DNA of 64,000 nucleotides, taken from positions 12,451 through 76,450 of the forward strand of contig JAOQII010000001.1 in assembly GCA_026134025.1 (NCBI GenBank). Direction: 5' to 3'. Position 1 is the first letter of the stretch; each line of letters begins with the position of its first letter. A program made the translations under genes and the position numbers. Source of the DNA: Candidatus Syntropharchaeum sp. (GTDB lineage Archaea; Halobacteriota; Syntropharchaeia; Syntropharchaeales; Syntropharchaeaceae). Positions 48,386-64,000 of the stretch are shown here, piece after piece. The notes beneath the pieces are model-generated. The model saw only the letters and a list, made by a program, of their open reading frames with translations, did not search any database and was not told the origin of the DNA.

Positions 48386-49366
48386 TTAAACCTCCGAGAT
48401 CTTTGATAGGAGTGCCTCAAGCTGTATCCGCTCATTCGCACCCTCAATGATTCTCATATCAAAATCAGCCATGATCAGGATAACCTCCTCAAGTTGTTTA
48501 CTGAGGGGACAGTCACCTGATGTGATTCTGTCATGTATCATATCAATCACCTCGTATCCTGTAAATCCACTATCTGCGGTCAGCGCCTCGATCATCTTTG
48601 CAACCTCTACAAAATCACCACTGAGACTGAGTGATAGCAGCTCATCGATTTTATCATCCCTGATCTCTGGAAGCTTGCCTGCGAGTGAATAATATTGTAG
48701 CGCATAGATCGCTTGCCCCAGGCTCCCTGATGCACGGGATATAATCGTCTGAAGCGTCTTTTCATCAAAGGTCAACCCCTCTTTTTCCATAATCTTTTTC
48801 AGGTGCTCCTCGATAAGCTCATCCTCGATTTTGCCAAGATACAGATTCAGCGCTCGTGATCTCAATGGTGGAATAATCTTTGAAGGTCTTTTGGTTGTGA
48901 ATATAAACCTGCATGTGCGATTGTATCGCTCTATCATTCTTCTTAACGCCTGCTGTGCATCGAGGGTGAGTGCATCGGCATTTCTGAAAAATATAATCTT
49001 GAAATCGGCATCAATTGGCATCAGCGAGGCATACTCGTTTATCACCTCCTTGAATGTCTCAATAACCGGTTTATTCTTCTCATAGAAGTGCTCAAATCTC
49101 GGATCAGCCTCAAGGTATGCTTTTCCTCGATTGAAAAAGTCAGATGCATCTATCTCGGTCAGGTTATCCTCAAACCCACCTCCATAGATACCTTTTGCAA
49201 TCAGATACACGAGTGTGCTCTTTCCCACACCCTCTCGTCCATGAAATAGCAGGTTCGGGATAGTTCCTGCCTCAACATACGACCTGATCCTGTTCACAAC
49301 CGCCGATTGCCCCAGAACCTCATCGAAGGATTTGGGTCTGTATTTATCAATCCAGACCTCACTCAA
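48386..49366 (-). CDS. Replication factor C small-subunit paralogue
   Basis: [39 protein letters not shown]; Walker B degenerate (IIFFRNAD). Confidence 0.85.
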
Positions 49367-50084
49367 ACTGAATCCCCTCCAGATCCCGCACACCATCTGC
49401 TTTCAGCATAAACTCACACGACTCTCCCTCAGGAAGTGATCTGTGCTTTCTTATTATCGCTCTTCGCTTCCCCCCACCGATCTTTTCAAGCTCCAGAACT
49501 GTTTTTGATGCGTATTCAAATATCAAACCACCGATGGGACACAGTCTATCGTTATCGATATCTGTATAGACCTGATTTGTTACAACAACCGCAAGATCGT
49601 CCTTTCTTGCAAGCTCGAGGAGTGTGATCATCTGTGATCCAAGCTGACGCCTCAGCATCTGTCCTCGCTCGTCATCAAGCTCAAGGCGGTAGAACATCGT
49701 TGCAGAATCGAGCACCACGAGACCGATATTTCCTCCAAGTTTCTTAAGATCTTCGATCGCGCTCTGCTGTTCGAGGAAATTGACCGGTTCAAAGATCATG
49801 ACCTCACGCGCGATCTTCCTGTAATCTTCTCCTGCAATCTGCTTGAACCGTTCAGGCGATAAACCTTCTGTATCGATGTAAACCGCCTTTCTACCTCTTT
49901 TAACACACTCGACAACAAGCTGGATACAGATATTTGTCTTACCGGAGCCTGGTTCACCATAGATCTGCGATACCGCTCCTGCCTCAAATCCACCACCGAG
50001 AAGGCGATCCAGGCTCCTGCACCCTGTCTGTAGCCGCTCAATCACCGCCTCAAGCTCAGAAGAAGATGATGGTTCCATTTTCAC
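49359..50084 (-). CDS. radB: DNA repair protein RadB
   Basis: LDRLLGGG, YGEPGSGKT, YIDTEG.S.ER, TNQVY, KHR motif. Confidence 0.93.
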   Translation of the reverse strand: MKMEPSSSSELEAVIERLQTGCRSLDRLLGGGFEAGAVSQIYGEPGSGKTNICIQLVVECVKRGRKAVYIDTEGLSPERFKQIAGEDYRKIAREVMIFEPVNFLEQQSAIEDLKKLGGNIGLVVLDSATMFYRLELDDERGQMLRRQLGSQMITLLELARKDDLAVVVTNQVYTDIDNDRLCPIGGLIFEYASKTVLELEKIGGGKRRAIIRKHRSLPEGESCEFMLKADGVRDLEGIQFE

Positions 50085-51163
50085 CTTATAAACTTTGTAT
50101 CAAACCCTCGCTCACTCAGGATCTCGCGAGTAAGACCCTTCAGAACAACATCTGCAAACCCAAGATCTGAAACCGTCTTTGAGCCTGTGAGAAACATCGC
50201 GACCCTGAGCTCCTCGAGCACCTTGCTTATATGATCCACAACCGCATCCATACCTCGAAGTGCTGGTTCAATCAGGGGCAAACCCATTCCACAGACCGTT
50301 GCACCGAGTGCGATCGACTTTGCTATATCAATTCCGCTTCGTATACCCCCTGTTGCAACCACAGGAATGCCAAAGTCCCTGCACTCAACGATCGAGACGG
50401 TTGTCGGTATTCCCCAATCCCAGAAAGCCTCTCCAAGCCGCTCTTTTATCCTGTTATCCTCTGCTCTCGCGCGATAAACCTCAATACCTGCCCAGCTTGT
50501 CCCCCCAACGCCTCCAACATCGATCGCAGCCACACCTGCCTGATAGAGCATATATCCAACTTTATGCGAGATGCCAGCACCTGTCTCCTTGACGATCACA
50601 GGTATATCAAGTTTCGTGCATATCCTGTTGATCGCTGTGATACACCCAACTGCGTTGACATCCCCTTCTGGCTGTATCGCCTCCTGCAGGAAGTTCAGGT
50701 GTATCGCTACCGCATCGGCATCGATCATATCCACAACCCGTTTCACACCATCGATACCGTACTTTGCAAGCTGAGGAGCTCCGATATTTGCATATACAAA
50801 CGCATTCGGGGCATAATCCCTCACAACCCTGAACGAATCCTCCTGAGCTGGATCTTCGAGTGCTGCACGCTGGCTTCCAACGCCGATGCCGATGCCGAGC
50901 TTTTCTGCTGCCATTGATAGGTTGCGATTGACCTCCATTGTATCAGGATGACCACCTGTCATCGATGTGATCAGGAGCGGGCATCGGAGTTCCCTTCCAA
51001 GAAATCTCGTTGTAAGGTCGATCTCGGCCATATCGATCTCAGGGAGAGCGTTGTGTATCAGAAGAACATCCTCGAAAGAGTGTGTGCGGTGTTCTACATC
51101 CTCCTCTGCACATAACCTCAGATGATCGAGCTTTCGCTTTGATGTTTCATTCAATCTTAGCAC
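50081..51163 (-). CDS. fni: Type 2 isopentenyl-diphosphate isomerase
   Basis: RKLDH, MTGG, GVGSQR, HLNFLQE, VKETGAG, GGTSW, DWGIPT. Confidence 0.96.
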
Positions 51164-51214
51164 CCTTTTTTGTCTTTAGATGAAATTAACAGGATAGGTT
51201 AAAGTCTTTATGCA

Positions 51215-53638
51215 TCATCTCAAGAGAAAACCTCCGAGATCTTGCTCGCTCCTGATATCATAGAGGTAGTGAACCGTCCCTTTTATGATCCTCAATGCTG
51301 CATAAAGAATTAAAAAGGCGTAAGCGATGGATATGACGAAAAAGAGGATGAATAGGTATAACCACTCTCTTTCAAGATCGTTTCTTTCTTTATCTGTGTC
51401 TTCAAGCAGCAACATCTCTCCTGCAATCCTGTATCGTTTTGAGGCATCTTCAAGGTGCGAGATGGCGGTACTGTACTTTTCATGGGCGGTGTCATAGTTG
51501 TAGGGATTCAAAAGGATGCGCCTGTTCCCGATTGCTGTAAAATCTTCCTCTTTTGCATCCTCGATGAGCTTCTCTGCGGTAAAACGTAAGTTCCCTGCAT
51601 CACTCACAAGATCATCGTGGAGTGAAACCATCAGTTCGTAGTTACGCCTCGCATCCCTTCGATCGGCTTCATTTCCGAGGAGTGTGTAGATCAGTTCTGC
51701 GTTACGATAGGCTCTTGCAGCGTGGTTCGCATCTTCACCCTCCTCCAGATGCGTTATATCACCCAATTCTGCCGCTTCTCTAATAGATGCACTCATATCA
51801 TCGGCGGTAGATGTAATAACGCCCACCTCGTAGTGGAGAACTTCATCGAGAAGATCTGTGGCGGCATCCCGGATATTCAGGGCATAGGAGCGGATCTCTT
51901 CATCCCAGATCTCTGAATGTGAGACGATCGTATCACTCGTGACCCATGCACCAACAGATTCTGTGACCGCCTCATCAAAGAAGCCACCCTCAAGCGATCC
52001 AAGCGCCTTATCGAGCGTCGTGATCAGGGTGCCTGTACTTCGTATCAGAACGATCAGCTTTTTCCAGTCATCAGAACTGGGACCTGGATCTTCTTTCTCA
52101 ACCCGATTAAGGATGTAAATAGCGTTCTGGAGTGCGGTATCTGCCTGCGAAAATTTAGCGACAAGCTCACTACCCCTCAGATCCTCGAACTCGCTTTTTG
52201 TCATTGAGATATTTATCGGTATGATCTTTGCTGCGATTTTAAGCGGTTTTTCACCTGCATTAAGGGATGTAATCTTCCCATCCCATGTATAGGGTCCTGG
52301 AACAGCCTCCAGCCCGGGCTGAATGGTTATCGTAATATTTCTCGACTCACCAGGAGGTATATCCTCAAAACCATCCTCTTTGAGTGCAGTAAGCCAGTCA
52401 GCATGTGCACCACTCTTTGAAAATGCGATACGTCTTACAGATTTATAGTTATAGATCTCAGTCAGGCTGATCATATATGATCGGTTCTCATACATCCCCT
52501 CTTTAAACTCAAGCGAGCCAAAATCGATACTTGAATGAGATAAAACAAATCCAACTGGCCAGCGTATCTCAATGTCAATATCTGTTTCCTTCTTACCCGC
52601 ACTACCGGCATCCACACGTATCACTGCTGTATGCTCACCCTCAGATGCGTCATAAAACGCGATAACTCGTATCTTTACCTTCTTCGTGCTCTTTCCAGCA
52701 ACCGAACCTGAAGGATTATCGATCTTGATATTGATCCCTGCAGGAAGCTCGATGACCCTTGCTTCAAAATTCATCGTCTCATCCCCCTCATTTCTGACCA
52801 TAAGATCGATCGTGCGTTCATAGGTTGCAACCGTTCCCCGTTTTTTATCAAAGCTTATCGTCAGTGACTTATCATACAATTGTCCAAGTTTTGGGGGCAT
52901 CAGAATATAGGCATCGATTTTTATGCTTGCAGAGCCTGCTACATCGGTTGAGATCGAGAATGTCCATGAGTAATCGTTGTGATCTGGTGTGCCCGGGCTT
53001 AACTCAAATGTTACATCCCTGGATGAGCCTGCAGGAATCACGAAAGCATCGGGGCTAACCGTGACCCATTCGTTCCCGCCAGTTTGTGAGATCGTTACAG
53101 TCACATCTTTATAGCCAAGCACCTCGCTTATCGTGACCAGCCTTGATGGATTATCATACCGATGAATCGTGCCAAAGTCGATCTGAGTATCACTGACTGC
53201 AATCTCTGCAAAGTAGATCACATCAATACTGACCGTCAAACTCTCATCACCAACATCGAGTGTGAAAGTCTCCAGACCTTCTGCCGTTTCGGGAGATACC
53301 ACTGTGTGGAGTGTTATCGTCGTTGATTCACCGTAAGCAAGGCTGAAAGAGGAGGCATCTGGGGTTATCGTCACAGTGTCTGTGCTCACAGATCCGATAC
53401 TCCCGCTCACTGTTACGTTAGGATCTGGATTTATGTTTGTGATCGTGAAAGTCGAGTAATCATCATAATAGGCGGTACTTTTCGGTTGATTGAATGAGAA
53501 GCTCAAATCGATCGTCGATGGATTCACCGATATATCTGCCGCTTTCGCCCCGCTGCATAAAAGCATCGAGAGCATCAGAAGTCCGATAACTGTTATAAAG
53601 CATCTAAGATATGAGTTCTTCACCCAACCTCGTGTCAT
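51215..53638 (-). CDS. Large surface protein: signal peptide, ~4 Ig-like beta domains, helical region, C-terminal TM anchor
   Basis: Signal ending CSGAKA; repeated IDFG/IDLS strand starts and IPAGSSR/IPPGESR turns; helical region then one TM. Confidence 0.75.
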   Translation of the reverse strand: MTRGWVKNSYLRCFITVIGLLMLSMLLCSGAKAADISVNPSTIDLSFSFNQPKSTAYYDDYSTFTITNINPDPNVTVSGSIGSVSTDTVTITPDASSFSLAYGESTTITLHTVVSPETAEGLETFTLDVGDESLTVSIDVIYFAEIAVSDTQIDFGTIHRYDNPSRLVTISEVLGYKDVTVTISQTGGNEWVTVSPDAFVIPAGSSRDVTFELSPGTPDHNDYSWTFSISTDVAGSASIKIDAYILMPPKLGQLYDKSLTISFDKKRGTVATYERTIDLMVRNEGDETMNFEARVIELPAGINIKIDNPSGSVAGKSTKKVKIRVIAFYDASEGEHTAVIRVDAGSAGKKETDIDIEIRWPVGFVLSHSSIDFGSLEFKEGMYENRSYMISLTEIYNYKSVRRIAFSKSGAHADWLTALKEDGFEDIPPGESRNITITIQPGLEAVPGPYTWDGKITSLNAGEKPLKIAAKIIPINISMTKSEFEDLRGSELVAKFSQADTALQNAIYILNRVEKEDPGPSSDDWKKLIVLIRSTGTLITTLDKALGSLEGGFFDEAVTESVGAWVTSDTIVSHSEIWDEEIRSYALNIRDAATDLLDEVLHYEVGVITSTADDMSASIREAAELGDITHLEEGEDANHAARAYRNAELIYTLLGNEADRRDARRNYELMVSLHDDLVSDAGNLRFTAEKLIEDAKEEDFTAIGNRRILLNPYNYDTAHEKYSTAISHLEDASKRYRIAGEMLLLEDTDKERNDLEREWLYLFILFFVISIAYAFLILYAALRIIKGTVHYLYDIRSEQDLGGFLLR

Positions 53639-54554
53639 AAAGATCCTTTCTCCACCTGGTAACGCGTCGATATGTTATAAACGTCAGAACTGCAAGAAGA
53701 GCGAGGTATGCAAGAAGCACCTTCAGTATCGCGATAATCATCTCATTGTACGTCTCATTTATATCCGTCTCAAGCTCCTCTATCGTTTCGAGTTTTCTGT
53801 CTGAATGTAACTCATAGATCTTTTTTCCGCTGTAAAAATTATCTCTTGCTTTCAATACCTCCATGAATCCAGAAGTGAGACCAAAAAACCCTGGAGGATG
53901 ATGCTCTGCGTTATCAAGGTGTACGCCTGCGGCATCTATGAACGAAGCTGCATCCTCCATATCTTTCTCATAGATCCGTCTGGTTCTCGCTGATTCAAAC
54001 CTCATACGGCTTGAATCCGTGAGAAGATCGCCTTTTCTGTATGCATCAGAGCTTATGGACATATACTCGATCCTGACAGCCGTCTCCTTCTCGATCCTTG
54101 AGGCAGACTCGAAGAACTCACCTTCTTTTATGTAAAATCGCTCAAGTGCAAGTTCCAGAAGAAGCGGGATTCCATTTGAAGAAGCCTCATCATATCCTGC
54201 AAGAAGGCTTATCGAGCTGTTTACATCATCTGCCATCCTGAGAGCTTCTATGTGAGAAGCAGGGTCGTCGTCCACGTCCGTCATCGCTTCAAATTTATCG
54301 AGAATCTCAAGAAAGAGATCAACCCATTCTGATGTTACTAACGTAACCTCTGATCCATCCATTCCCTGTATAGTCGCCTGAACTCTGGTCTTTGCAAGGA
54401 ATAACTCACTGTAATCCTCAAAGAGTGATGGCTTATCAATCGCCAGCAGGTCTGTCAGGATCTCGCGTTTTGTTGCATCAGATCCATCAACAGGCGTGAT
54501 AGTGGAAAGAACGAGTATCAGGATGAGAAATACGGGAATCAGGTGATAACGCAT
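53604..54554 (-). CDS. Secreted helical protein with C-terminal TM anchor
   Basis: Signal MRYHLIPVFLILILVLSTITPVDG (start adjusted to 54554); acidic helical body; TM and short tail. Confidence 0.75.
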   Translation of the reverse strand: MRYHLIPVFLILILVLSTITPVDGSDATKREILTDLLAIDKPSLFEDYSELFLAKTRVQATIQGMDGSEVTLVTSEWVDLFLEILDKFEAMTDVDDDPASHIEALRMADDVNSSISLLAGYDEASSNGIPLLLELALERFYIKEGEFFESASRIEKETAVRIEYMSISSDAYRKGDLLTDSSRMRFESARTRRIYEKDMEDAASFIDAAGVHLDNAEHHPPGFFGLTSGFMEVLKARDNFYSGKKIYELHSDRKLETIEELETDINETYNEMIIAILKVLLAYLALLAVLTFITYRRVTRWRKDLYDTRLGEELIS

Positions 54555-54591
54555 CAAAAACTTTATGTCCCACATCTTTAAATGGATATGT
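54555..54591. promoter_or_regulatory. Overlapping divergent promoters (probably leaderless on both sides)
   Basis: CAAAAA-CTTTATGT about 24 nt before GTG 54592 (+); TTTAAA at 54577-54582 about 23 nt before ATG 54554 (-). Confidence 0.55.
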
Positions 54592-55467
54592 GTGGCAAGA
54601 CCCATTCTCATCGCTGGCATCGGGACTGCTGGAGGCCGCCTGCTTGATGCACTATGGCGTTACCATCCAGGGATGAAAAAAATCGCAGATAGCGTTACAA
54701 TCAGCCACAAATCGCCTGAAAGTGAAGAACTTTTCAAAAAACATCTCAAGAATGGCGTGAAAAACGTCTTCCTTCTTGCAGGACTTGGAGGGGAAATTGG
54801 AGGAACTGTGACACTGGATCTTGCGAAAATAGCGAAAGATGCAGGTTTTCATCGATATGTCGTTGGTATAATTCCAGCAACACGAAGAACAGATCGTGAT
54901 TCGATCAATCGGGCATTCAAAGCTCTCAATGAACTTAAAACGAGGGCAAATGGTGTGATAATCGTTGACAACGAGAAACTATCTCATCTCCCCTATTTTG
55001 AGAACTACTATGATCAGTATAACGAGTATGTGGCATCGATCCTGAAGGATATATTCGAGGCACAATCGATCGATGAGGTGCTCAAATGCCTTTCATTTGA
55101 GGGGGAAGCAGGCTATGCTGCGGTTGCGCGTTCATCAGAGCTTACAAAGGGGTTACTTGGTTATATTATCCCGATAATCCCACACCATGAGATCGACATA
55201 AGGACGATGCTCAGAGTTGCACTTGAGAAGTTAACCGTCTTTGATGACCCGATTGGATCGGTGAAGGGTGCTGCATTAATAAATGTCCCGGAAGAAAGGG
55301 TTGATACGATCGATCAGGCGCTGGTGGAGGATCTCATGCAGAGATATACCACGAGGTCAACGATCGATATCAGGAAGACGAGACGCAATATCGTATCGAT
55401 AACAGTGATCTTTACGTACCCATTTGAGGAATTCAAAGCACATAAGCAGATTGGTGGGCGAGTATGA
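54592..55467 (+). CDS. Degenerate tubulin/FtsZ-superfamily protein (CetZ-like)
   Basis: T1 AGIGTAGGRL, altered T4 AGLGGEIGG, VVGIIP, N...AL.EL, IIVDNE; start adjusted to GTG 54592. Confidence 0.75.
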   Translation: MARPILIAGIGTAGGRLLDALWRYHPGMKKIADSVTISHKSPESEELFKKHLKNGVKNVFLLAGLGGEIGGTVTLDLAKIAKDAGFHRYVVGIIPATRRTDRDSINRAFKALNELKTRANGVIIVDNEKLSHLPYFENYYDQYNEYVASILKDIFEAQSIDEVLKCLSFEGEAGYAAVARSSELTKGLLGYIIPIIPHHEIDIRTMLRVALEKLTVFDDPIGSVKGAALINVPEERVDTIDQALVEDLMQRYTTRSTIDIRKTRRNIVSITVIFTYPFEEFKAHKQIGGRV

Positions 55468-56693
55468 GGCGGTATGGGATAATCGGATCGATATTATTCG
55501 GTATTTTAATCCTCATTGGAATTCTCCTGCTATTTGGTACGGGATCGGATCTTGCGATAACGTTGATCCTGCTTCTAATCCCTGTGATGGTAATCGTATC
55601 GTTTTTCATAATCTACCTGACCGAAGTGCGCGGAAAAAGTATTAAAACCCGGGTGCTTGAGCGGGATCTTAAGCGCATCGCTCACAACCTGATCGAACTT
55701 TTGCGGGAGCTTTCCAACTTTGAAAACCAGTATCACATCGTCACAGGGGGATTCAGGGATGAACTTAGCGCCGTAAAGGCAGATCTATCCTCGATCGGGT
55801 GTCTTGTAAACGGTGAAGTCCATTTTGATAAAGCGAAGCTTAAAAAGGCGAGATCTTCTGATATCGAGGAGATCAAACTGAAGATTGAGAGTATCAAAGA
55901 TCGATACGAACCAACGATCTATGGAAAGGTCATTGAGCAGGGAGAAAGGTATCTCGATCGTTTGAGAGAGCTTGAAGCAGCGGGTTACAGAGGGATAGGC
56001 GATCAGATGAGGCGTATTGAAGCGATGATCCTGGAAGATATTGAGATCGATATCCTGAACCTCGCCCACTTTTTGGGTGATCTGACCTCGATCTTTGATG
56101 ACGCGATCGAATCTTCGCTTTGTGAGGTGAAAGCAGTGGAATCAGGCTCAAAGACGATAAGGGATCGTTCAAGGATCAGGACTGATATCAAGATTGCAGA
56201 GCAGAATATGGAGCGGGGAAACTATGATGCTGCCGCGGGCATCCTCAGGAATGTGATGGAACGCATCATCGATGAGACCGCTGATGGGTTCAATCAGTAC
56301 AAGGAGATGCTGCTGGAGATGGTCGGCGTCGTTAAAAAGGTCGCAGATGGTGAGAAAGTTCGTGCGATAGAGGCGAAGATCGAGCATACAGACTCCCCAT
56401 CACAGCAGAATATATTGAAAGAGTGCGAAGCAGAGTTGCGAGTTACAGCCATCGAGACCCTTGAAGCGATTTATGAGAATATATTCGATCTTGAAGCAAA
56501 GATAAGAGATAAGGAACCATCATCTGAAGAGTATCCTGTCGATTACTGGGGAGCCGATCGGATGCAGGATGTTCTTGATCTACAAACGATCGAGCAGCTC
56601 GGTGAGTTTATGCTGAGGTATGAAGCACTCATCGAAGATGCAAACTCCAGGTTGGAATATGACCGGGACAGGCTGGATGTTATCAGCAAATAA
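55464..56693 (+). CDS. Membrane-anchored (2 N-terminal TM) long helical/coiled-coil protein
   Basis: Two hydrophobic helices then ~350 aa charged helical sequence; ATGA overlap with previous gene. Confidence 0.75.
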   Translation: MRRYGIIGSILFGILILIGILLLFGTGSDLAITLILLLIPVMVIVSFFIIYLTEVRGKSIKTRVLERDLKRIAHNLIELLRELSNFENQYHIVTGGFRDELSAVKADLSSIGCLVNGEVHFDKAKLKKARSSDIEEIKLKIESIKDRYEPTIYGKVIEQGERYLDRLRELEAAGYRGIGDQMRRIEAMILEDIEIDILNLAHFLGDLTSIFDDAIESSLCEVKAVESGSKTIRDRSRIRTDIKIAEQNMERGNYDAAAGILRNVMERIIDETADGFNQYKEMLLEMVGVVKKVADGEKVRAIEAKIEHTDSPSQQNILKECEAELRVTAIETLEAIYENIFDLEAKIRDKEPSSEEYPVDYWGADRMQDVLDLQTIEQLGEFMLRYEALIEDANSRLEYDRDRLDVISK

Positions 56694-56733
56694 ATTTAAA
56701 CGATTAACGTGTATCTAACTTGAGGAGATATTC

Positions 56734-57171
56734 ATGGATGCACTCAGCATTATCACACTGATACTAATTGTTGTATTCGTTCTTGAGATTGTCATCATGC
56801 TTTTGAGACTGGAAGTTGAGAAGATGCTGCTTCTGTTTCCGATTATCGGGGTGATCTTTCTCTCGATTGCATTTGTATTGAATGAATACAGCGATCGCTA
56901 CTTCACATCTCTCTCTGAAGCTGCGATCTTTGCGCTTGTCTATGGCACGATCATAATCGGGGTTCTGCTTGGTTTAATCGGTATTCTGGTCTGGTTCAGG
57001 GGCGAGAAGAGTTCAAAAGGGGTTCTTGCCCAGGCACGAACGATGGATAGCGTTGTTGGCGGCGTCGAGAGTGAGATAAGAGAGGGTGAGCGAGAGCTTG
57101 CCTACTTTGCCGATGAACTGGAAGAGATGCGAGAGCGAACAAGATCCTATGAATTACGTGGGGGCAAGTGA
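56734..57171 (+). CDS. Small 3-TM protein with C-terminal coiled coil
   Basis: GAGGAG SD; three hydrophobic helices; VESEIREGERELAYFADELEEMRER. Confidence 0.75.
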   Translation: MDALSIITLILIVVFVLEIVIMLLRLEVEKMLLLFPIIGVIFLSIAFVLNEYSDRYFTSLSEAAIFALVYGTIIIGVLLGLIGILVWFRGEKSSKGVLAQARTMDSVVGGVESEIREGERELAYFADELEEMRERTRSYELRGGK

Positions 57172-59759
57172 GTATGGATGTGGCTGAGAAAGAAGACACG
57201 ACAAACAGACTCATCATCGGAATAGGGGGGCAGGGTAGTAAGATCGTAAATAACATACTGAGCATCCTGAAAAGTGATAGAATACCAAGAAATGAGGAGT
57301 TTCTGATCATTGATACAGATCAGGCATCTGCAAATGCATGCACAGAGATAGAGGAGCGTAGAAAGATCGTGCTCTCAAGGCCCGATACGGTCGTTATGAA
57401 GAACGTGAATCGATGGCTCCCAGATCCATACCTGATGGCAGCAGGGGCGGGATGTGGTCAGCACAGGATATACGGGAGAGCAATGTACAACGTCCACAGG
57501 GAGCGCATCATGAATGCGATAGGCTCTGCCACTTCAGACCTTCGTAACCGTACGGGTGGCAAGGACTTTCTGATCCTGATGGTATCTGCGCTCGGTGGTG
57601 GCACAGGTTCGAGCATGCTTCTTGACATCGCGATCGATATACGAGACTGGATAACAAAGCAGTTTGGATCCGGTCCTCTGATCTTCGGGATAACGATCCT
57701 GCCATCAAGCAACGAATCAGGTTTACCGATGGGAAATGGATATGCAACCTTAAAGGAGCTTCATTTTCTGATGTCACACCAGCAGGACATGATAATCGAG
57801 GATAAAAACTACTCAAACCCATTCAAGATCGTATTCCTGCTTGGGAGGGATCTACAGGGTCAGAATAGAGATGACGAGCTTGAGAGGGCGATTTCACGGT
57901 TTCTGCTCGATCTCGGATTTGTCCCAGGTGGTGGCATCGAGGCAAAGGGCAAATGGCTCGATCTAAACGATCTCCAGAACCGTGCAAGAGAGTATGAGAG
58001 CCGATTCTCAACGCTTGGATACTATGAGTGCGTCTTTCCGGCCGATAAACTCCAGCTTTACTATGAGATCGAGGATGAGATTCCAAGAATGCGTGAGAAG
58101 CTTGTCGAGATCGATGCGAGGCTCGGTGAGATCCGTGATAAGACCGAATCCAAGCGCATCGAACTCCAGGGACTTGAGGCGAAGATAAGTGAGATCCAGC
58201 GAGAGATGGACGCCTACGAATCAAAAAAGGGAATATTTTCATATATTAATCGAAAAGCACTATCAGATGCAAAGAGCAGGCTTGATCGTGCCAGGAGAAA
58301 GCTATCTGAGCTTAAGGAGGATGATTTCAACCTTGAGATCCGCACAAACGACCTCGAAGAGACTCGCAGAATGGTGGAGCAGGATATCGAGAAGTTGAAG
58401 GCGATCAAGAACAGGACGCTGAGGGAGATTACCTCGCCGTTCAACACAAGAAGTTATCACCAGATCGAGCTCACAGAGGATGAGGTGAAGCAGCTAAAGA
58501 AAGATCGTGAAGACCTGAAGAACCTCTCATTCCTGGAGATTATGCGAAAACTTGGGCGAGAGGAGGAATACTTCAGGTGGACACACGCACCGATCAACCA
58601 GGGTGATATCATTTTCAACCCGATGGTGAACTACCGTCCATCGGTCGAGAACGCATCAACTGCAAAGTACTTCGAGACGCTGAACAGGTACGGCTTCCTC
58701 GCACTGGATGCACAGGGCAATGTGATAAATGAGGAGGAGAAGTTCGGGCACTTTGTGGCGGTCCTGAGCAGCAGGATGGATAACTTCGATGATGCGAGGC
58801 TCGGTGACACTGCTTTCAGGAGTATGGTTACAGAACGCTTTGCAAAGGATGCCGACATCCTGAAGCTCAACACACCCGCACGCCTTCACAGTTTCGCGAT
58901 TTACACGCTCATGATCGGTCTTCAGCCATGGCAACCTGCCCCCGATCTTCCACCAAGACTAAGGGAGCTTGAGTGGCTTGGGAAGGCGTATGACACGAGC
59001 GATCTCTCCAAATTGCAGCGGCACCATTCGCTCTTCTATGGGACACCAAAGCCGTTCTCGGTGATCACAGGGATTGACTACAAACCAGGCGAAGACGACT
59101 TAAACCGCGAGAATGTGACAGCTTTCTGGAAAGATTACGAGATCATCGAAGAGAGAGCGATCTGGACAACGGTACCAATCCTGCTTGCATCAGCTTTAGA
59201 CTCCTTTGATCGCCTCATCTCAAGTATCGAGATGGCAGAAGCGATAAAAGATATGCGCATACCTGAAAGCTTCTCGATTGCAAATATAACGATGCTGGTA
59301 CAGGATCTTGAGAATGCCAGCCTTAAGATCGATAAACTTCAGGAGGGGCTCGAGGAAGGGTACAAAACCTACCTCTCAATCGATAAAAACTTTAAAGATA
59401 CGATAGAGAAGTTAAAAGGTGCAAAAGCCTTTGAAGATGGTGACAGATTACTCAGAATGCTGAATGAAACCTACAGAGACGTTGAGATCCTGATCGATGT
59501 CATCGATAACCTTTCCAAAAGCTTCAATGACGAAGTCCAGACTGCGATACACAACGTACAGGACTTTCTTGGAAGAATCCCCTCAGAAGAGACAACTTCA
59601 AGCGTGATACGCCACATTGCTCAGGCAAACAGTGAGATCGAGAAGATCAACATGGGCACAAAGGATGCGATAAGGCTCATGAAGGAGCTTGGATCACCTC
59701 TTGCAAAGATCCTGCTCCTGTTGAAGGATCTAAGAGATATAATGGAGCGTGCAGAATGA
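57168..59759 (+). CDS. Large tubulin-like GTPase (Tubulin_2/FtsZl-like) with long coiled coil and helical C-terminal bundle
   Basis: T1 IGIGGQGSKI, IIDTD, T3 GAGCGQHR..GR, T4 ALGGGTGSS, NGYATLKEL, T7-like LDLNDL; heptads at ~aa 295-420. Confidence 0.85.
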   Translation: MSMDVAEKEDTTNRLIIGIGGQGSKIVNNILSILKSDRIPRNEEFLIIDTDQASANACTEIEERRKIVLSRPDTVVMKNVNRWLPDPYLMAAGAGCGQHRIYGRAMYNVHRERIMNAIGSATSDLRNRTGGKDFLILMVSALGGGTGSSMLLDIAIDIRDWITKQFGSGPLIFGITILPSSNESGLPMGNGYATLKELHFLMSHQQDMIIEDKNYSNPFKIVFLLGRDLQGQNRDDELERAISRFLLDLGFVPGGGIEAKGKWLDLNDLQNRAREYESRFSTLGYYECVFPADKLQLYYEIEDEIPRMREKLVEIDARLGEIRDKTESKRIELQGLEAKISEIQREMDAYESKKGIFSYINRKALSDAKSRLDRARRKLSELKEDDFNLEIRTNDLEETRRMVEQDIEKLKAIKNRTLREITSPFNTRSYHQIELTEDEVKQLKKDREDLKNLSFLEIMRKLGREEEYFRWTHAPINQGDIIFNPMVNYRPSVENASTAKYFETLNRYGFLALDAQGNVINEEEKFGHFVAVLSSRMDNFDDARLGDTAFRSMVTERFAKDADILKLNTPARLHSFAIYTLMIGLQPWQPAPDLPPRLRELEWLGKAYDTSDLSKLQRHHSLFYGTPKPFSVITGIDYKPGEDDLNRENVTAFWKDYEIIEERAIWTTVPILLASALDSFDRLISSIEMAEAIKDMRIPESFSIANITMLVQDLENASLKIDKLQEGLEEGYKTYLSIDKNFKDTIEKLKGAKAFEDGDRLLRMLNETYRDVEILIDVIDNLSKSFNDEVQTAIHNVQDFLGRIPSEETTSSVIRHIAQANSEIEKINMGTKDAIRLMKELGSPLAKILLLLKDLRDIMERAE

Positions 59760-60784
59760 AGAAAAAAATGAAGAAGACGCTTCTGATAGCGTTTGTACTC
59801 TTTTACTTCCTGAGTGGTAGTGTTGCGGCCCAGGATATCCTGAGGATTGATGAGGCAAAGTCATACGTCATCGATATGCACACAGGTAGTAAGATTCCGT
59901 ACTCCGATTTCATAGATAGCGAACAGCTTGAAGGGCATGACCTTGAGTTTCACATCGCAATCGAGAAGACGGATAATCCGATATCTGATGAGTACGTCCT
60001 GGAGCTTCGGACGAACCTTGAAGATCCTGAATGGCAGTATGGCCAGGATATCTATACATCTGCCACAGTCATTACCTGGAAGGGAGAAGCGGAGCATGCA
60101 CTCACTCCCCCAACGATAATTCTCGCTGGAACTGTTCCCGAAGCCGTGATACAGGTCAGAGAGCCTAATTTTGAGTCCGTGGATCTCACAGGAATTGGGA
60201 AAAAGAGAGTGTATGTGACGTTGACGATCGGAACCACAACAGATGGCAGTACGCTAAAACGAGTCGTGCAGAAGCTTGTACCGTCCATGGAATTTTACGC
60301 AACAAGTGAGGCTCTAAATGATGCAGGAGAGGAGATGGAAGCAAATCTTGCAAGTGCGAGTGAAACAATCGGCGAGAGTGAGCTTGAATCGAACATAAGA
60401 CGTCTCTATGAAGAAGGGCATCCAGGATGGGCATTAATTCTCTCAGAGGATTACAAAGCACTATCTGAGGATATAGCTCCGCCCCCGGTCCTCCTTTATG
60501 TTATTCTCGCGATCGTACTTGGTATCATAGTCGGTGGTGGCTTTGTCTATGCATTGAAGGGTAAGGAAGGTGGAGTTGACATGGCGGCACTCGCTTCTGA
60601 GCTTAAAGAGGTCTCATCCACCATCGAAGATACTTCACGATCGATAAACAGTATTGCCACAAAACTTGCACGGATAGAGGGATCAGAGGAGAGGGATGCT
60701 GGTAGAGAACTGATGAAGATGCGCGGAAGACTGAATGAATCAGCGAATCAGATCCGATCTGTGGGGGACAGGTTGAGGGAATGA
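59756..60784 (+). CDS. Single-pass membrane protein: signal peptide, extracellular beta domain, TM, cytoplasmic coiled coil
   Basis: Signal ending SVAA; TM LLYVILAIVLGIIVGGGFVYAL; heptads LASELKEVSSTIEDTSRSINSI. Confidence 0.75.
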   Translation: MKKKMKKTLLIAFVLFYFLSGSVAAQDILRIDEAKSYVIDMHTGSKIPYSDFIDSEQLEGHDLEFHIAIEKTDNPISDEYVLELRTNLEDPEWQYGQDIYTSATVITWKGEAEHALTPPTIILAGTVPEAVIQVREPNFESVDLTGIGKKRVYVTLTIGTTTDGSTLKRVVQKLVPSMEFYATSEALNDAGEEMEANLASASETIGESELESNIRRLYEEGHPGWALILSEDYKALSEDIAPPPVLLYVILAIVLGIIVGGGFVYALKGKEGGVDMAALASELKEVSSTIEDTSRSINSIATKLARIEGSEERDAGRELMKMRGRLNESANQIRSVGDRLRE

Positions 60785-61671
60785 CCCAGTTGGAAGAGGC
60801 AAAAAGCTACTTTGATGAGGGGGTTCGTGCATACAGAAGTGGGGATCTGAATAAGGCAGAAGAAGCGTATAGAGAAGCGATACGTCTTGATGAAAGTTTT
60901 GCTGAGGCACACAACAATCTTGGGTTTCTATTATTTGAATTGGGCCGCTACAGAGAGGCTGAATATGAACTGCGAGAAGCTGTAAGGTTCGATGAAAGTT
61001 ACGCGGATGCACATAACAACCTTGGATTCTTTTTATACCAGCTTGGAAACTATGACGAAGCGGAAAAGGAGTGCAGAGAAGCTATAAGTCTCGATCCAGC
61101 CTATGCCGACGCGTATAACAATCTGGGAAACATTCTTTTTGAGAGCGGGAAATACAGCGAGGCAGAAGAAGCGTATAGAGAAGCGATACGTCTTGATAGT
61201 AACCTTGTAATCCCCCGAAACAACCTTGGATTTATGTTGTATCAGACCAGACGCTACAGGGAGGCGGAGGAGGAATACAGGGCGGCGATTGAGATTGATC
61301 CTGAATTTCTCGATCTCCATTACAACTACGGGCTTCTCCTGTTTGCGATGGGTAGATATAATGAGGCACTCTCCAGATACAAAGAGGTTGTGAAAATCGA
61401 TCAAAATAACGCGAAGGCTCACATCAACCTCGGACTTCTATCAAAGCGTCTGGAGATGTACAGAGAAGCCGAAGAGGCGTACAGGAGAGCCATTGAGATA
61501 GATTCCAACCTTGCAGAGGCGCATAACAACCTGGGAGTTCTGCTATACGAGCTTGGACGGTATGAAGAAGCTAAAAAAGAACTTAAAGAGGCGATAACGA
61601 TCGATCCTCATTACAGGGAGGCACAATACAATCTCATCAATCTCTTTGGAGATCTCGGTGATGAGCGATAA
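60781..61671 (+). CDS. Tetratricopeptide-repeat protein (~8 TPRs)
   Basis: 34-aa repeats AEAHNNLG..L..LGRY.EAE..YREAI.LDP; ATGA overlap with previous gene. Confidence 0.92.
   Translation: MTQLEEAKSYFDEGVRAYRSGDLNKAEEAYREAIRLDESFAEAHNNLGFLLFELGRYREAEYELREAVRFDESYADAHNNLGFFLYQLGNYDEAEKECREAISLDPAYADAYNNLGNILFESGKYSEAEEAYREAIRLDSNLVIPRNNLGFMLYQTRRYREAEEEYRAAIEIDPEFLDLHYNYGLLLFAMGRYNEALSRYKEVVKIDQNNAKAHINLGLLSKRLEMYREAEEAYRRAIEIDSNLAEAHNNLGVLLYELGRYEEAKKELKEAITIDPHYREAQYNLINLFGDLGDER
60854..61197 (+). repeat. Identical 38-bp direct repeat (60854-60891, 61160-61197) inside the TPR gene
   Basis: AGGCAGAAGAAGCGTATAGAGAAGCGATACGTCTTGAT twice, 306 bp apart (three 102-bp TPR units). Confidence 0.85.
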
Positions 61672-61673
61672 GA

Positions 61674-62423
61674 TCACCCAACGTTGCTCATATACGCCCT
61701 CACCAGTGGCTTTAAGATCCTGTTTGCCAAGATAAGATGCCTCTGTGCATTTCTGAAGTGGTTGTTGGCATCACGAAACTCATCCCTCTCATAGCGCCTT
61801 ACACCCTCGTTGTACTCATCACGTGCAGATTCGACGTGGTAGTTAAATCGAGAAAGACGCTCTCTAAGGTCAGAAACATCCTCGCCCCTCTCCTCAATTG
61901 CATTGATTCGCGCATCCATTGCAGTTGAGAACGTTTCCATCTGATCTATCCTGCTACCAAGCTGATGATGTGCGATAAATCCTATACTGTATCTTGTATC
62001 TCCCTTAATATCAATCCAGAGGGATCTCGCTCTCTTTGCAACCTCCAGAACCTCTTCTTTCGTCTCACAACCTTCAAGTTCTACTTTTAACGCCTCAAGT
62101 TCATTTATATCTTGCTGAAGATCTGAAGAACCGAGACGAGGATTTGCACCCTGCTCCTCAAGTACCTCGATCCTCGCCTTTACCGCTTCAAGGTATGCGA
62201 TCAGGTAATTTAAAGCCCTCTCGATATACGCCTTAGTCTCTTCTATCTGGCCATAATCTGGATCTGATCGCTCAAATTGCTGGTATTTACGCTTTGCGTC
62301 GAGATACTTGGCCCGATGATGGTTCTCAGATGCTGATGCGGTAAGTGGCGTAAGTGCTGTTAAGATGAGAATGGATGCGAGAAAGATAGATCCTACCTTT
62401 AAAATCCCTGATCCTGGTTTCAT
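61674..62423 (-). CDS. Secreted all-helical/coiled-coil hypothetical protein
   Basis: Signal ending LTASA; amphipathic helices throughout. Confidence 0.7.
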   Translation of the reverse strand: MKPGSGILKVGSIFLASILILTALTPLTASASENHHRAKYLDAKRKYQQFERSDPDYGQIEETKAYIERALNYLIAYLEAVKARIEVLEEQGANPRLGSSDLQQDINELEALKVELEGCETKEEVLEVAKRARSLWIDIKGDTRYSIGFIAHHQLGSRIDQMETFSTAMDARINAIEERGEDVSDLRERLSRFNYHVESARDEYNEGVRRYERDEFRDANNHFRNAQRHLILANRILKPLVRAYMSNVG

Positions 62424-62456
62424 CTTGCCAACCTGCCCTAACTTAAATAATATAAT

Positions 62457-62485
62457 GGGCGGGAGAAGATAAATACTTCCCGCCC
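62457..62485 (-). terminator. GC-rich hairpin between the two secreted-protein genes
   Basis: GGGCGGGA(GA)AG...CTTCCCGCCC inverted repeat 12 nt after the stop at 62498. Confidence 0.5.
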
Positions 62486-62497
62486 GCTTGCACTCGA

Positions 62498-63037
62498 TTA
62501 TTCGACTGCAACAAGCTCCAGTTCCACACCTGCTTCCTCGTATGGCTCAATCGAAGGGTCGGTCCATCGTTCCCAGTTATCCTTGGCCCAGTCACCAGCA
62601 CCTCTTATTATCGCCATGCCTTCGCCTTTCGCTGCAAGCCTGCCGTTACCTCTGGCAAAGATTACCATATCCTCACCCTCGAAGACCGCGACACCCTTGC
62701 CGCGATAGATCGTAACAAGAGGACCAAGCTCTATCACCCTGCCATCTCCGTCTGTTATTACTTCGATATCACTACCTATCACGACAAGGCGTCCGATGCC
62801 ACTGAAAGTAGCGATGCCAGTGCCCTCGAGAAGTGCACGACCCCTGCCCTCTGCATATATCCAGCCATCTCCTGCCACAAGTTCCTCACCTGCTGCATCA
62901 CATATGCCATCACCGTCTTCGTCGACAAAGTTCGCATTCATACCGTTCCCATTTCCCTGCCATGCAGCAGCACTTCCTACAAACATAGATGCTGCTACAA
63001 GGCACGCCACTACTATACTCACTTTCAATCTTTTCAT
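62498..63037 (-). CDS. Secreted Gly-rich beta protein with DxDxDG calcium-binding-like motif
   Basis: Signal MKRLKVSIVVACLVAASMFVGSAAA (start adjusted to 63037); FVDEDGDGICD; repeated G.G.A...G.G strands. Confidence 0.7.
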   Translation of the reverse strand: MKRLKVSIVVACLVAASMFVGSAAAWQGNGNGMNANFVDEDGDGICDAAGEELVAGDGWIYAEGRGRALLEGTGIATFSGIGRLVVIGSDIEVITDGDGRVIELGPLVTIYRGKGVAVFEGEDMVIFARGNGRLAAKGEGMAIIRGAGDWAKDNWERWTDPSIEPYEEAGVELELVAVE

Positions 63038-63236
63038 ACACACATTCCTCCGTTTCGTTTTGGGATTTGTACCCAAAGAAAGCGTGTATTTTGAATAAAA
63101 TAAAGATACTTTAAGAAAACAAAAAATAAAAGCTTTAAAACGGTTTAAAATACTTTAAGAAACTTTATGGCTGCTTTTTAAACTTCACACAAGACGGTAA
63201 AAAGATTTAAAAGTATTCCTGAAGTAGCCACTTTTA

Positions 63237-64000
63237 ATGCAGGAGAGACGATTCACAGGCGAGATCAATCCATCGATGACGGGTGAAAAGGCGACCCTTA
63301 AAGGATGGGTCCACGAGATAAGAGATCTTGGTGGGATTATGTTCTTAATCCTCAGAGATAGAGAGGGTTTTGCCCAGATTACATTCCCTAAGAAGAAGAT
63401 TGATCCCGATCTTCTCGAAGTTGCCAAGCGCATTTCAAGAGAGAGCGTGATCACGGTTAAAGGAACAATTCAGGAGGATAAGCGGGCGCCAAATGGATAT
63501 GAGATCATACCAGAGGGGATTACGGTTTTGAATCCTGCCAACTCGCCGCTGCCGCTTGATACAACCGGAAAGGTTGGGGCTGAGCTTGATACGAGACTCG
63601 ATTCACGTTTCATGGACATTCGAAGACCTGAAGTTCTCGCGATATTCAGGATAAGGGATAAGGTACTTACTACAACTCGCAACTTTTTAAATGAGCATGG
63701 TTTTATTGAGATAAACACGCCGAAGATCGTCGCAACTGCAACCGAAGGTGGGACCGCCCTATTTCCAATTACATACTTCAATAGGGAGGCGTTCTTGAGC
63801 CAGAGTCCTCAGCTATTCAAACAGATCATGATGGGAGCAGGACTTGATCGCGTCTGGGAGATCGCTCCGATATTTCGTGCAGAGGAGCATGATACAACCC
63901 GCCACCTCAATGAGGCAACATCGATCGATATTGAGGCTTCTTTTGTGGATTACGAGGATGTGATGGTGCTACTCGAAGATCTAATCGCAACCCTCTATAC
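63237..64000 (+). CDS. aspS: Aspartyl-tRNA synthetase (archaeal type), 5' part; runs off the window
   Basis: Manual translation [10 protein letters not shown]...[22 protein letters not shown]...ATEGGT.LF...[10 protein letters not shown]...FRAEEH.T.RHLNE. Confidence 0.95.

Follow-up and report, generated by a model that had tools for sequence, protein, structure and literature searches.

What does an archaeal locus do that encodes two proteins of the tubulin superfamily side by side with membrane and surface proteins? The question is raised by positions 51215-61671 of a 64,000-nucleotide (nt) stretch of a Candidatus Syntropharchaeum sp. genome (contig JAOQII010000001.1; the whole stretch is hereafter the window), where eight open reading frames (ORFs), g1 to g8, lie in two divergent units, g1-g2 on the minus strand and g3-g8 on the plus strand. 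An original prediction, made from the letters and their translations, had read them as an envelope-spanning cytoskeletal or membrane-remodelling system. We find that g1-g7 are a co-inherited set centred on a GTPase, g6, under very strong purifying selection, and we put the probability at roughly 55% that they form one membrane-spanning system in which g6 assembles at the membrane, g3 is its non-hydrolysing partner and the role lies in the envelope or membrane. The genes of the locus are:

g1: 51215-53638, minus strand, 807 amino acids (aa); surface protein with a signal-like N-terminus and a C-terminal transmembrane (TM) segment
g2: 53604-54620, minus strand, 338 aa (probably ~316 aa); secreted helical protein with a C-terminal TM segment
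g3: 54565-55467, plus strand, 300 aa (~291-300 aa); FtsZ/CetZ fold
g4: 55464-56693, plus strand, 409 aa; N-terminal TM hairpin and charged cytoplasmic region
g5: 56734-57171, plus strand, 145 aa; three TM segments and a charged cytoplasmic tail; triad member
g6: 57168-59759, plus strand, 863 aa; FtsZl1/Tubulin_2 GTPase; triad member
g7: 59756-60784, plus strand, 342 aa; bitopic protein with an ectodomain; triad member
g8: 60781-61671, plus strand, 296 aa; TPR protein (TPR families)

That seven of these genes belong together follows from their arrangement in other genomes. Orthologues of g6, at 61-71% identity, were recovered from 23 of 41 related genomes. Across a sample of the phylum, g6 is present in 43 of 401 genomes, namely those of the window's own family (G000 and one of two others) and of ANME-1 (41 of 55), and in none of the 343 genomes of other families. 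Order and orientation of g1-g7 are kept in 8 of 12 examined loci of other genera at 32-66% identity while the flanks differ, and synteny is maintained over at least eight ANME-1 genera with unrelated flanks. In the syntenic loci, identity to the window's copy is 37-41% for g1, 44-48% for g2, 32-37% for g3, 36-43% for g4, 41-47% for g5, 63-66% for g6 and 47-50% for g7. Adjacency was counted over 35 loci from different species genomes, using for each gene only the loci with enough flank: g5 lies directly upstream of g6 in 29/29 and g7 downstream in 31/31, and g4, g3, g2 and g1 are found beside it in 17/25, 16/23, 14/20 and 12/15, respectively. The clustering of g1-g7 is far beyond chance.

Loci without g1-g4 represent a split arrangement; in G024 and G036, the divergent g1-g2 and g3-g4 pairs are located together on another contig from g5-g6-g7. 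In the near-identical genome G001, g1-g2 keep the left flank seen in the window and g3-g7 lie elsewhere, with all parts still in the genome. Moreover, in five genomes without g6 (79-98% complete) neither g3 nor g7 was found by profile, the g7 profile having matched five of five g6-bearing genomes as a positive control. Synteny, joint absence of g3, g6 and g7, and completeness of the set when split all sustain the proposal that the genes form a functionally linked set of two tubulin-superfamily proteins with membrane and surface proteins.

The set is inherited vertically in ANME-1 (Methanophagales) and the sister family. Between the two families g6 is 63-66% identical, compared with 57-60% for ThrRS in the same genomes, and is therefore as conserved as ThrRS. 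A quick maximum-likelihood tree of g6 groups the genera with 10 label changes against a minimum of 9; one of these changes is accounted for by the G001 row, which is a wrong ORF (a PKD protein) and is to be disregarded. No relative was found in a viral contig collection. In the window, the cluster is embedded between housekeeping genes, with ThrRS, RFC, RadB-like and type-2 IDI-like genes on one side and AspRS on the other.

Within the locus, the ORF calls returned all eight frames on the predicted strands and with the predicted tight junctions. Neighbours overlap by 4 nt at g3/g4, g5/g6, g6/g7 and g7/g8 and by 35 nt at g1/g2, 40 nt separate g4 from g5, and g2 and g3, as annotated, share 56 nt at their starts. 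Kyte-Doolittle hydropathy, used for the membrane topologies, reproduced the arrangements expected for g1, g2, g4, g5 and g7. All eight proteins were searched against Pfam and NCBIfam, with matches listed to E≤1, and against the defence models of PADLOC. No family of the first two databases was above cut-off for g2, g4, g5 or g7, and PADLOC gave no defence model for the cluster beyond weak coiled-coil or TPR noise. The putative coiled coils appear as weak matches to coiled-coil families and as long helices in a low-confidence model of g6.

At the core of the set is a triad consisting of g5, a small polytopic protein, the GTPase g6, and g7, a bitopic surface protein. The match of g6 to the Pfam family Tubulin_2 (PF13809; 96 bits, cut-off 27, residues 15-299), also recovered by a whole-genome family search, and its intact T1 and T4 loops bear out the predicted 863-aa tubulin-like GTPase. 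The T1 sequence GIGGQG and the T4 sequence GGGTGSS are invariant in 12 orthologues (alignment A2), and the G-G-T-G core remains invariant or nearly so across 35 family members (alignment A5). Column identity is 0.89-0.99 over most of the N-domain (residues 41-300). The segment LDLNDL, in which we presume a likeness to the T7 loop, is conserved in the wider family.

Beyond the GTPase domain (15-299), residues ~292-421 of g6 form a predicted long helical hairpin, which is followed by a conserved central domain (~427-660) and a C-terminal region predicted to be helical. An AlphaFold2 model built on a 12-row alignment shows residues 292-351 and 357-421 as long helices and the C-terminus as helical, with low confidence (mean predicted local distance difference test score, pLDDT, 55). 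For the central part, the best score in the ESM Atlas was 0.77. The possibility that the central domain (422-665) is a displaced tubulin C-terminal domain is not supported, since in hhalign neither the profile of the g3 family nor that of the other tubulin family aligned to it at 1% probability or more. The ANME-1 orthologues run 30-45 aa past the end of the window's g6, with a variable acidic linker followed by a conserved ELPDLSL-like peptide (L014:8978-11671; A2 columns ~875-919). This terminal peptide is missing from the window's g6 and from its near-identical relative. FtsZ, too, ends in a variable linker and a short conserved peptide that binds its tethers.

Contigs of four public DNA runs were mapped over positions 49000-63500. 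In one of them, X4, summed contig depth reaches 163 at 57228-57711, against ~3-8 in the other bins of that run; we read this stretch as GTPase-domain DNA of g6 that is so conserved that contigs from other organisms of higher abundance map there at ≥90%.

Both invariant partners of g6 have conserved cytoplasmic parts. In g5, three TM segments are followed by a conserved charged cytoplasmic tail of ~55 aa. g7 begins with a signal-like N-terminus and continues with an ectodomain of ~210 aa, a juxtamembrane GHPGWA motif, a TM segment at 236-269 and a helical cytoplasmic tail of 73 aa; ectodomain, motif and cytoplasmic helix are all conserved (alignment A6). There is no Pfam family for g7 and every named homologue is labelled 'hypothetical'; in the ESM Atlas it falls, at 0.93, with unnamed clusters mostly labelled Bathyarchaeota, which is a lead only. 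A complex prediction for full-length g6 (35-row alignment) with the g7 tail (268-342) scored 0.00 against a mark of 0.32 and, being without controls, speaks neither way on binding.

The second tubulin-superfamily protein is g3, whose gene invariably accompanies g4 and, in most loci, lies next to the triad. Its sequence match to Pfam Tubulin (PF00091) is partial, covering profile positions 96-187 only (38 bits, cut-off 33, E 2.7e-9), and a word-based homologue search returned four close relatives only. The AlphaFold2 model (pLDDT 78, predicted template-modelling score 0.81) matches FtsZ and CetZ over both domains in a Foldseek search of the PDB (E ~1e-14, template-modelling scores 0.6-0.72, the 0.72 being that of CetZ2, 4b45). 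The top matches include CetZ1, CetZ2, M. thermophila CetZ and many FtsZ proteins, with phage TubZ at rank 25. In alignment A1 the T1 glycines of g3 are invariant, and later loops retain their DN and N positions; the T4 G-box is degenerate and not conserved, being variable and three residues shorter in ANME-1, with a glycine-rich variant in the window's copy. Searched against PDB sequences, the family profile (A1) found Aquifex FtsZ at 1.6e-6 and H. volcanii CetZ2 at 5.3e-6. The original description of g3 as 'CetZ-like' is too specific, because the profile matches FtsZ and CetZ about equally weakly. Between g3 and g6 themselves, hhalign of whole profiles aligned only the T1 region at 5% probability, and a deeper g6 N-domain profile gave 63% over the T4-T5 region. 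Judged from orthologue alignments, g3 likely starts at the GTG at 54592 rather than at the annotated 54565.

Two FtsZ paralogues and one CetZ-like gene are found on other contigs of the genome (open frames of 385, 387 and 391 aa; canonical Tubulin family); g3 and g6 are therefore extra tubulin-superfamily genes.

Like g3, the remaining members, g1, g2 and g4, are additions of this lineage. g1 has Ig-like domains at ~146-454, a helical region, a TM segment at 757-787 and a conserved cytoplasmic tail of ~20 aa. Its Ig-like matches are mostly below cut-off, the only one above being NPCBM_assoc (25.7 against 24.4 bits); choice-of-anchor D reached 29 against 45 bits. Nowhere in the module is conservation lower than in the outer, Ig-like N-terminal half of g1, whereas the tail of g1 is conserved. 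g2 has an N-terminal signal-like segment, a TM segment at 291-320 and a conserved cytoplasmic tail. Because its orthologues (44-48% identity) begin at query residue 21-43, the start of g2 is probably near 54554, giving ~316 aa. In g4, a TM hairpin (2-57) precedes a charged cytoplasmic region of ~350 aa; the protein was not detected by hidden Markov model (HMM) outside ANME-1 and the sister family. No similarity was found by BLASTP or hhalign between g2 and the helical C-terminal half of g1, and g1, g2, g4 and g7 are mutually unrelated by hhalign.

The conserved ~20-aa tails of g1 (51215-51280) and g2 (53604-53665) carry an alike acidic pattern, D-x3-5-G-E/D-x-hydrophobic, in otherwise unrelated proteins. 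This common pattern may be a shared docking motif.

The original prediction had also counted g8 as a member of the cluster. Its TPR identity and its start/stop overlap with g7 in the window hold; its membership of the conserved set does not, as a g8 homologue follows g7 in 0 of 24 loci with enough flank. Of the mapped runs, X1, which may be the source sample, has one contig that covers 54271-60650 and bridges g2 and g3 as in the window. The long contigs of X5, a strain of ~98.5% identity, depart from the window's sequence at 54567 and 54585, as in the G001 arrangement. Alternative sequence occurs before 60658 and after 60781 in all four runs, and X5 lacks 61100-63500. From these breakpoints, both the g2-g3 and the g7-g8 joins differ between close strains. 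The absence of g8 from the 24 loci and the strain-variable g7-g8 junction together place g8 outside the conserved module.

G001 (L023 4131-8741) has an insertion immediately after g7 that consists of a 139-aa gene and the gene of a 923-aa surface protein with a PKD domain. A duplicate of the last ~45 codons of g7 marks the boundary of the insertion, and a different TPR-like gene follows. Loose contig ends at 60658 and 60781 in the four runs show that forms with and without the insertion are both natural. The spacer between g2 and g3 (54555-54592) measures ~10-37 nt between the likely starts, compared with ~100 nt in ANME-1 loci, and coincides with the breakpoint at which the ~98.5%-identical strain has g1-g2 and g3-g7 at separate loci.

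The triad has a wider range than the full set. An exhaustive HMMER search of 1.84 billion representatives yielded 243 relatives of g6, of which 42 reached E≤1e-30. Some 30 of full length (845-985 aa) share only 21-35% identity with g6 and with one another, and the named relatives carry the labels Altiarchaeales and Thermoplasmatota. Five distant lineages were examined in metagenome loci (L120, L122/L123, L126, L127 and L129). Immediately upstream of the g6-like gene, all five encode a polytopic protein of 173-220 aa with a charged tail (hhalign to g5 88%, E 3e-6). Directly downstream, four have a g7 homologue (L120, L122, L126 and L127; hmmsearch E 1e-27 to 1e-39) and the fifth a protein of the same topology. 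No homologue of g1, g2 or g4 was detectable in the five. The original prediction had named Methanomicrobia, ANME and Halobacteria as groups in which to check conservation of the gene neighbourhood. Synteny extends over ANME-1 genera, but the system is not restricted to these groups, since the triad also occurs in lineages labelled Altiarchaeales and Thermoplasmatota, and other Halobacteriota carry unrelated FtsZl1 operons.

A further tubulin-superfamily gene recurs near most of the distant triads. L122 has a 404-aa relative of g3, which is nearer to the CetZ-like gene of our genome (1.3e-6) than to its FtsZs. Four of the five lineages have, within ~5 kb of the triad, another tubulin-superfamily family of 425-461 aa, with a T1 loop of GxGECGR-like sequence and an intact SAGGGTG G-box:

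L120: 3372-4757, minus strand, member of the 425-461-aa tubulin family
L122: 1473-2774, minus strand, member of the same family
L126: 13953-15302, minus strand, member of the same family
L129: 4008-5285, minus strand, member of the same family

This family was not found in the window's genome or in three ANME-1 genomes checked. In two of the four lineages its gene is followed by that of a homologous protein of ~290-300 aa. In a further locus (L133:2862-5266, plus strand) the g6-like gene is split into ORFs of 291 and 482 aa, which may reflect a frameshift, a pseudogene or an assembly error.

How does the module compare with systems already described? In the accessible part of their paper, Makarova and Koonin 2010 (PMC2875224) predicted that FtsZl1 operons act in membrane remodelling with lineage-specific membrane partners. 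The same text names a vWA-domain protein, often a Ser/Thr kinase, a divergent P-loop GTPase, or OmpA as classical partners, and reports that FtsZl1 has no identifiable T6-H7 or C-terminal domain, both of which FtsZ requires to form filaments. g6 is a member of FtsZl1, which it resembles in its match to PF13809, its GGGTG(S/T)G-type signature, its membrane-protein-rich operon and the canonical FtsZ elsewhere in the genome. The three-part build of that family, with FtsZ-like N-domain, long coiled-coil or helical region and helical C-terminal part, is consistent with the low-confidence model of g6 and with weak matches to coiled-coil families. The locus differs in having the g5/g7 pair and a second tubulin-superfamily protein; as the original prediction had noted for vWA, kinase and extra GTPase genes, no vWA, kinase, P-loop GTPase or OmpA match was found in g1-g8 with Pfam and NCBIfam at E≤1. 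PF13809 itself occurs in 82 of the 401 genomes of the phylum sample, and profile HMMs of g1-g5 and g7 had no match in nine classical loci of other families of the phylum, in which FtsZl1 is ~1050 aa. Together with its ~870-aa relatives, g6 forms a deep branch of its own apart from these ~1050-aa proteins. The g1-g7 set is therefore different from known FtsZl1 operons, a kind of operon that was predicted in 2010 and is yet uncharacterised.

Tubulin-superfamily systems of other kinds offer further comparisons. With CetZ and FtsZ, g3 shares a predicted complete two-domain fold, the T1 glycines and the DN and N positions; it departs from them in its degenerate G-box, its partial Pfam match, its length of ~300 aa and its missing C-terminal tail. 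FtsZ and its tethers (SepF in archaea, FtsA/ZipA in bacteria) provide the concept of dedicated partners that tether a cytoplasmic GTPase of the tubulin superfamily to the membrane, but the module has no SepF-like gene and its putative tethers are integral membrane proteins with ectodomains. Santana-Molina et al. 2023 (PMC9871819), in the portion available, use Tubulin_2 proteins as an outgroup only and describe CetZ-like proteins of Halobacterota and Altiarchaeota with coiled-coil neighbours. Our literature search retrieved no paper on the module in ANME-1; the supplements of PMC2875224 and PMC9871819, which were outside that search, may show related neighbourhoods.

We hypothesize that g6, with its intact GTP-binding loops, would assemble in a GTP-dependent manner at the cytoplasmic face of the membrane. 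It would be held there by the cytoplasmic tails of polytopic g5 and bitopic g7, the ectodomain of g7 facing outward, and in this lineage g4 and the tails of g1 and g2 may hold it as well. g3 would probably be a non-hydrolysing partner, cap or adaptor of g6 and not a second polymer. The most likely role would be organising or remodelling the membrane or envelope, for example patterning of a wall or sheath, cell shape, vesicles or protrusions. The role would not be cell division, since two FtsZ genes and a CetZ-like gene sit elsewhere in the genome. Coupling across the membrane would fit the conservation of the short cytoplasmic tails of g1 and g2; those of g5 and g7 are conserved as well, whereas variability is highest in the outer Ig-like part of g1.

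Several observations weigh against this proposal. ANME-1 can do without the system, which had no match in 14 of the 55 genomes sampled, including genomes that are 98% and 92% complete. Its range across archaea is patchy, so that an accessory or conflict system would fit too, and the cluster junctions differ between near-identical strains. Polymerisation of g6 is not assured, because T6-H7 and the C-terminal domain are unidentifiable in FtsZl1 (PMC2875224, accessible part) and the hhalign comparison of the central domain was null; the g6 model has a pLDDT of 55. Operons of bacteria that pair tubulin with coiled-coil proteins are classed as conflict systems in the available text of PMC7159879, and experimental work on any FtsZl1 protein was not found in the literature searched.

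A conflict (immunity) system is the alternative that survives best, although we consider it unlikely. Surface sensors g1, g2 and g7 would here signal to an effector, g6 with g3, that assembles in an NTP-dependent manner, as an analogue of the bacterial operons with tubulin and coiled-coil proteins that were reinterpreted by Kaur, Burroughs, Iyer and Aravind 2020 (PMC7159879). As far as the accessible text of that paper goes, those systems, which have vWA and TM partners, resemble ours in tubulin domains fused to coiled coils, sometimes two per operon, and in membrane-bound partners that carry extracellular domains. The patchy archaeal range, the ANME-1 genomes without a match and the strain-variable junctions point the same way, as do the fast-evolving outer Ig-like domains of g1. 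In one distant locus, moreover, a gene for a fusion with a BrxL-like Lon protease is found two genes upstream of the triad (L127:1166-3886, plus strand; 906 aa, subtilase plus BREX-type ATPase domain, E 1.6e-104; a single case). However, the GAP1-N2/DO-type TRAFAC GTPase, vWA, HSP70, FNIII arrays and effector domains described in that text are not matched in g1-g8, and PADLOC returned noise only. The described systems are known from firmicutes and actinobacteria, whereas g6 looks housekeeping-grade: its conservation equals that of an aminoacyl-tRNA synthetase and its inheritance agrees with the genus tree. The housekeeping flanks and the lack of a relative in the viral contig collection also speak against immunity.

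Alternatively, the module could be a scaffold that positions a surface structure or a cell-cell contact, such as an adhesion patch for a syntrophic partner or for chain neighbours, localising a site much as CetZ1 does for the motility machinery of Haloferax. Such a role, which we regard as distinctly improbable, would account for the Ig-like domains on surface proteins, the conserved tails of g1 and g2 and the PKD-domain surface protein gene directly behind g7 in G001, and an effect of CetZ1 on how the motility machinery is assembled has been reported (PMC13644373; 10.1101/2024.05.02.592137, accessible parts). Against it, no adhesin, pilus, archaellum, cytochrome or secretion family was matched in or beside the module, and the triad is also present in the Altiarchaeales- and Thermoplasmatota-labelled lineages. 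These lineages are not known to share the ANME-1 way of life.

TubZ systems have a TubR-like DNA-binding adaptor and a centromere beside the tubulin gene, on a plasmid or phage. A TubZ-type role in DNA or plasmid segregation, or another mobile-element function, is highly implausible here: TubZ-type relatives of tubulin do serve to segregate plasmids and phage genomes, a phage TubZ ranks 25th among the fold matches of g3 and Tubulin_2 genes occur on Borg elements (PMC9879509, available part), but the module lies on the chromosome with housekeeping genes on both sides, it shows a vertical pattern of inheritance, viral-contig relatives are absent from the collection searched, and the partners are membrane and secreted proteins with no DNA-binding adaptor found, centromere-like repeat arrays not having been searched for.

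Returning to a system in which g6 assembles at the membrane, a bolder version is possible, if doubtful. The triad with a partner tubulin paralogue (g3, or the 425-461-aa family elsewhere) may constitute an ancient, unrecognised trans-envelope cytoskeleton of archaea, in which GTP-driven assembly of FtsZl1 beneath the membrane would be mechanically coupled to the outer surface by way of integral membrane proteins and, in ANME-1, would pattern the rigid cylindrical envelope or cell contacts. If true, archaea would have, in addition to the division rings of FtsZ and the shape filaments of CetZ, a third functional class of machinery from the tubulin superfamily. FtsZl1/Tubulin_2 is the most divergent branch of the superfamily, and two incompatible predictions for it are in print, membrane remodelling and immunity. 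The module, which is inherited vertically, offers a clean version of such a system that lacks the vWA, kinase and GTPase partners, with a fixed three-gene core, a defined topology and a second tubulin fold whose GTP site has decayed. With so small a set of proteins, polymerisation, membrane tethering and pairing of tubulin paralogues become directly testable. Furthermore, next to nothing is known about the cell biology and envelope of ANME-1, which are uncultured and key methane oxidisers, and a link to envelope or contact would bear on how consortia are built.

Two minor observations concern the surroundings of the genes. A scan for sigma-70-type promoters and terminators, models ill-suited to archaea, found such sites to be rarer than in shuffled sequence. 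Downstream of g8, two minus-strand ORFs that have no Pfam match and are not kept beside the module in relatives (61674-62423, 249 aa; 62498-63076, 192 aa) each begin with an N-terminal hydrophobic segment.

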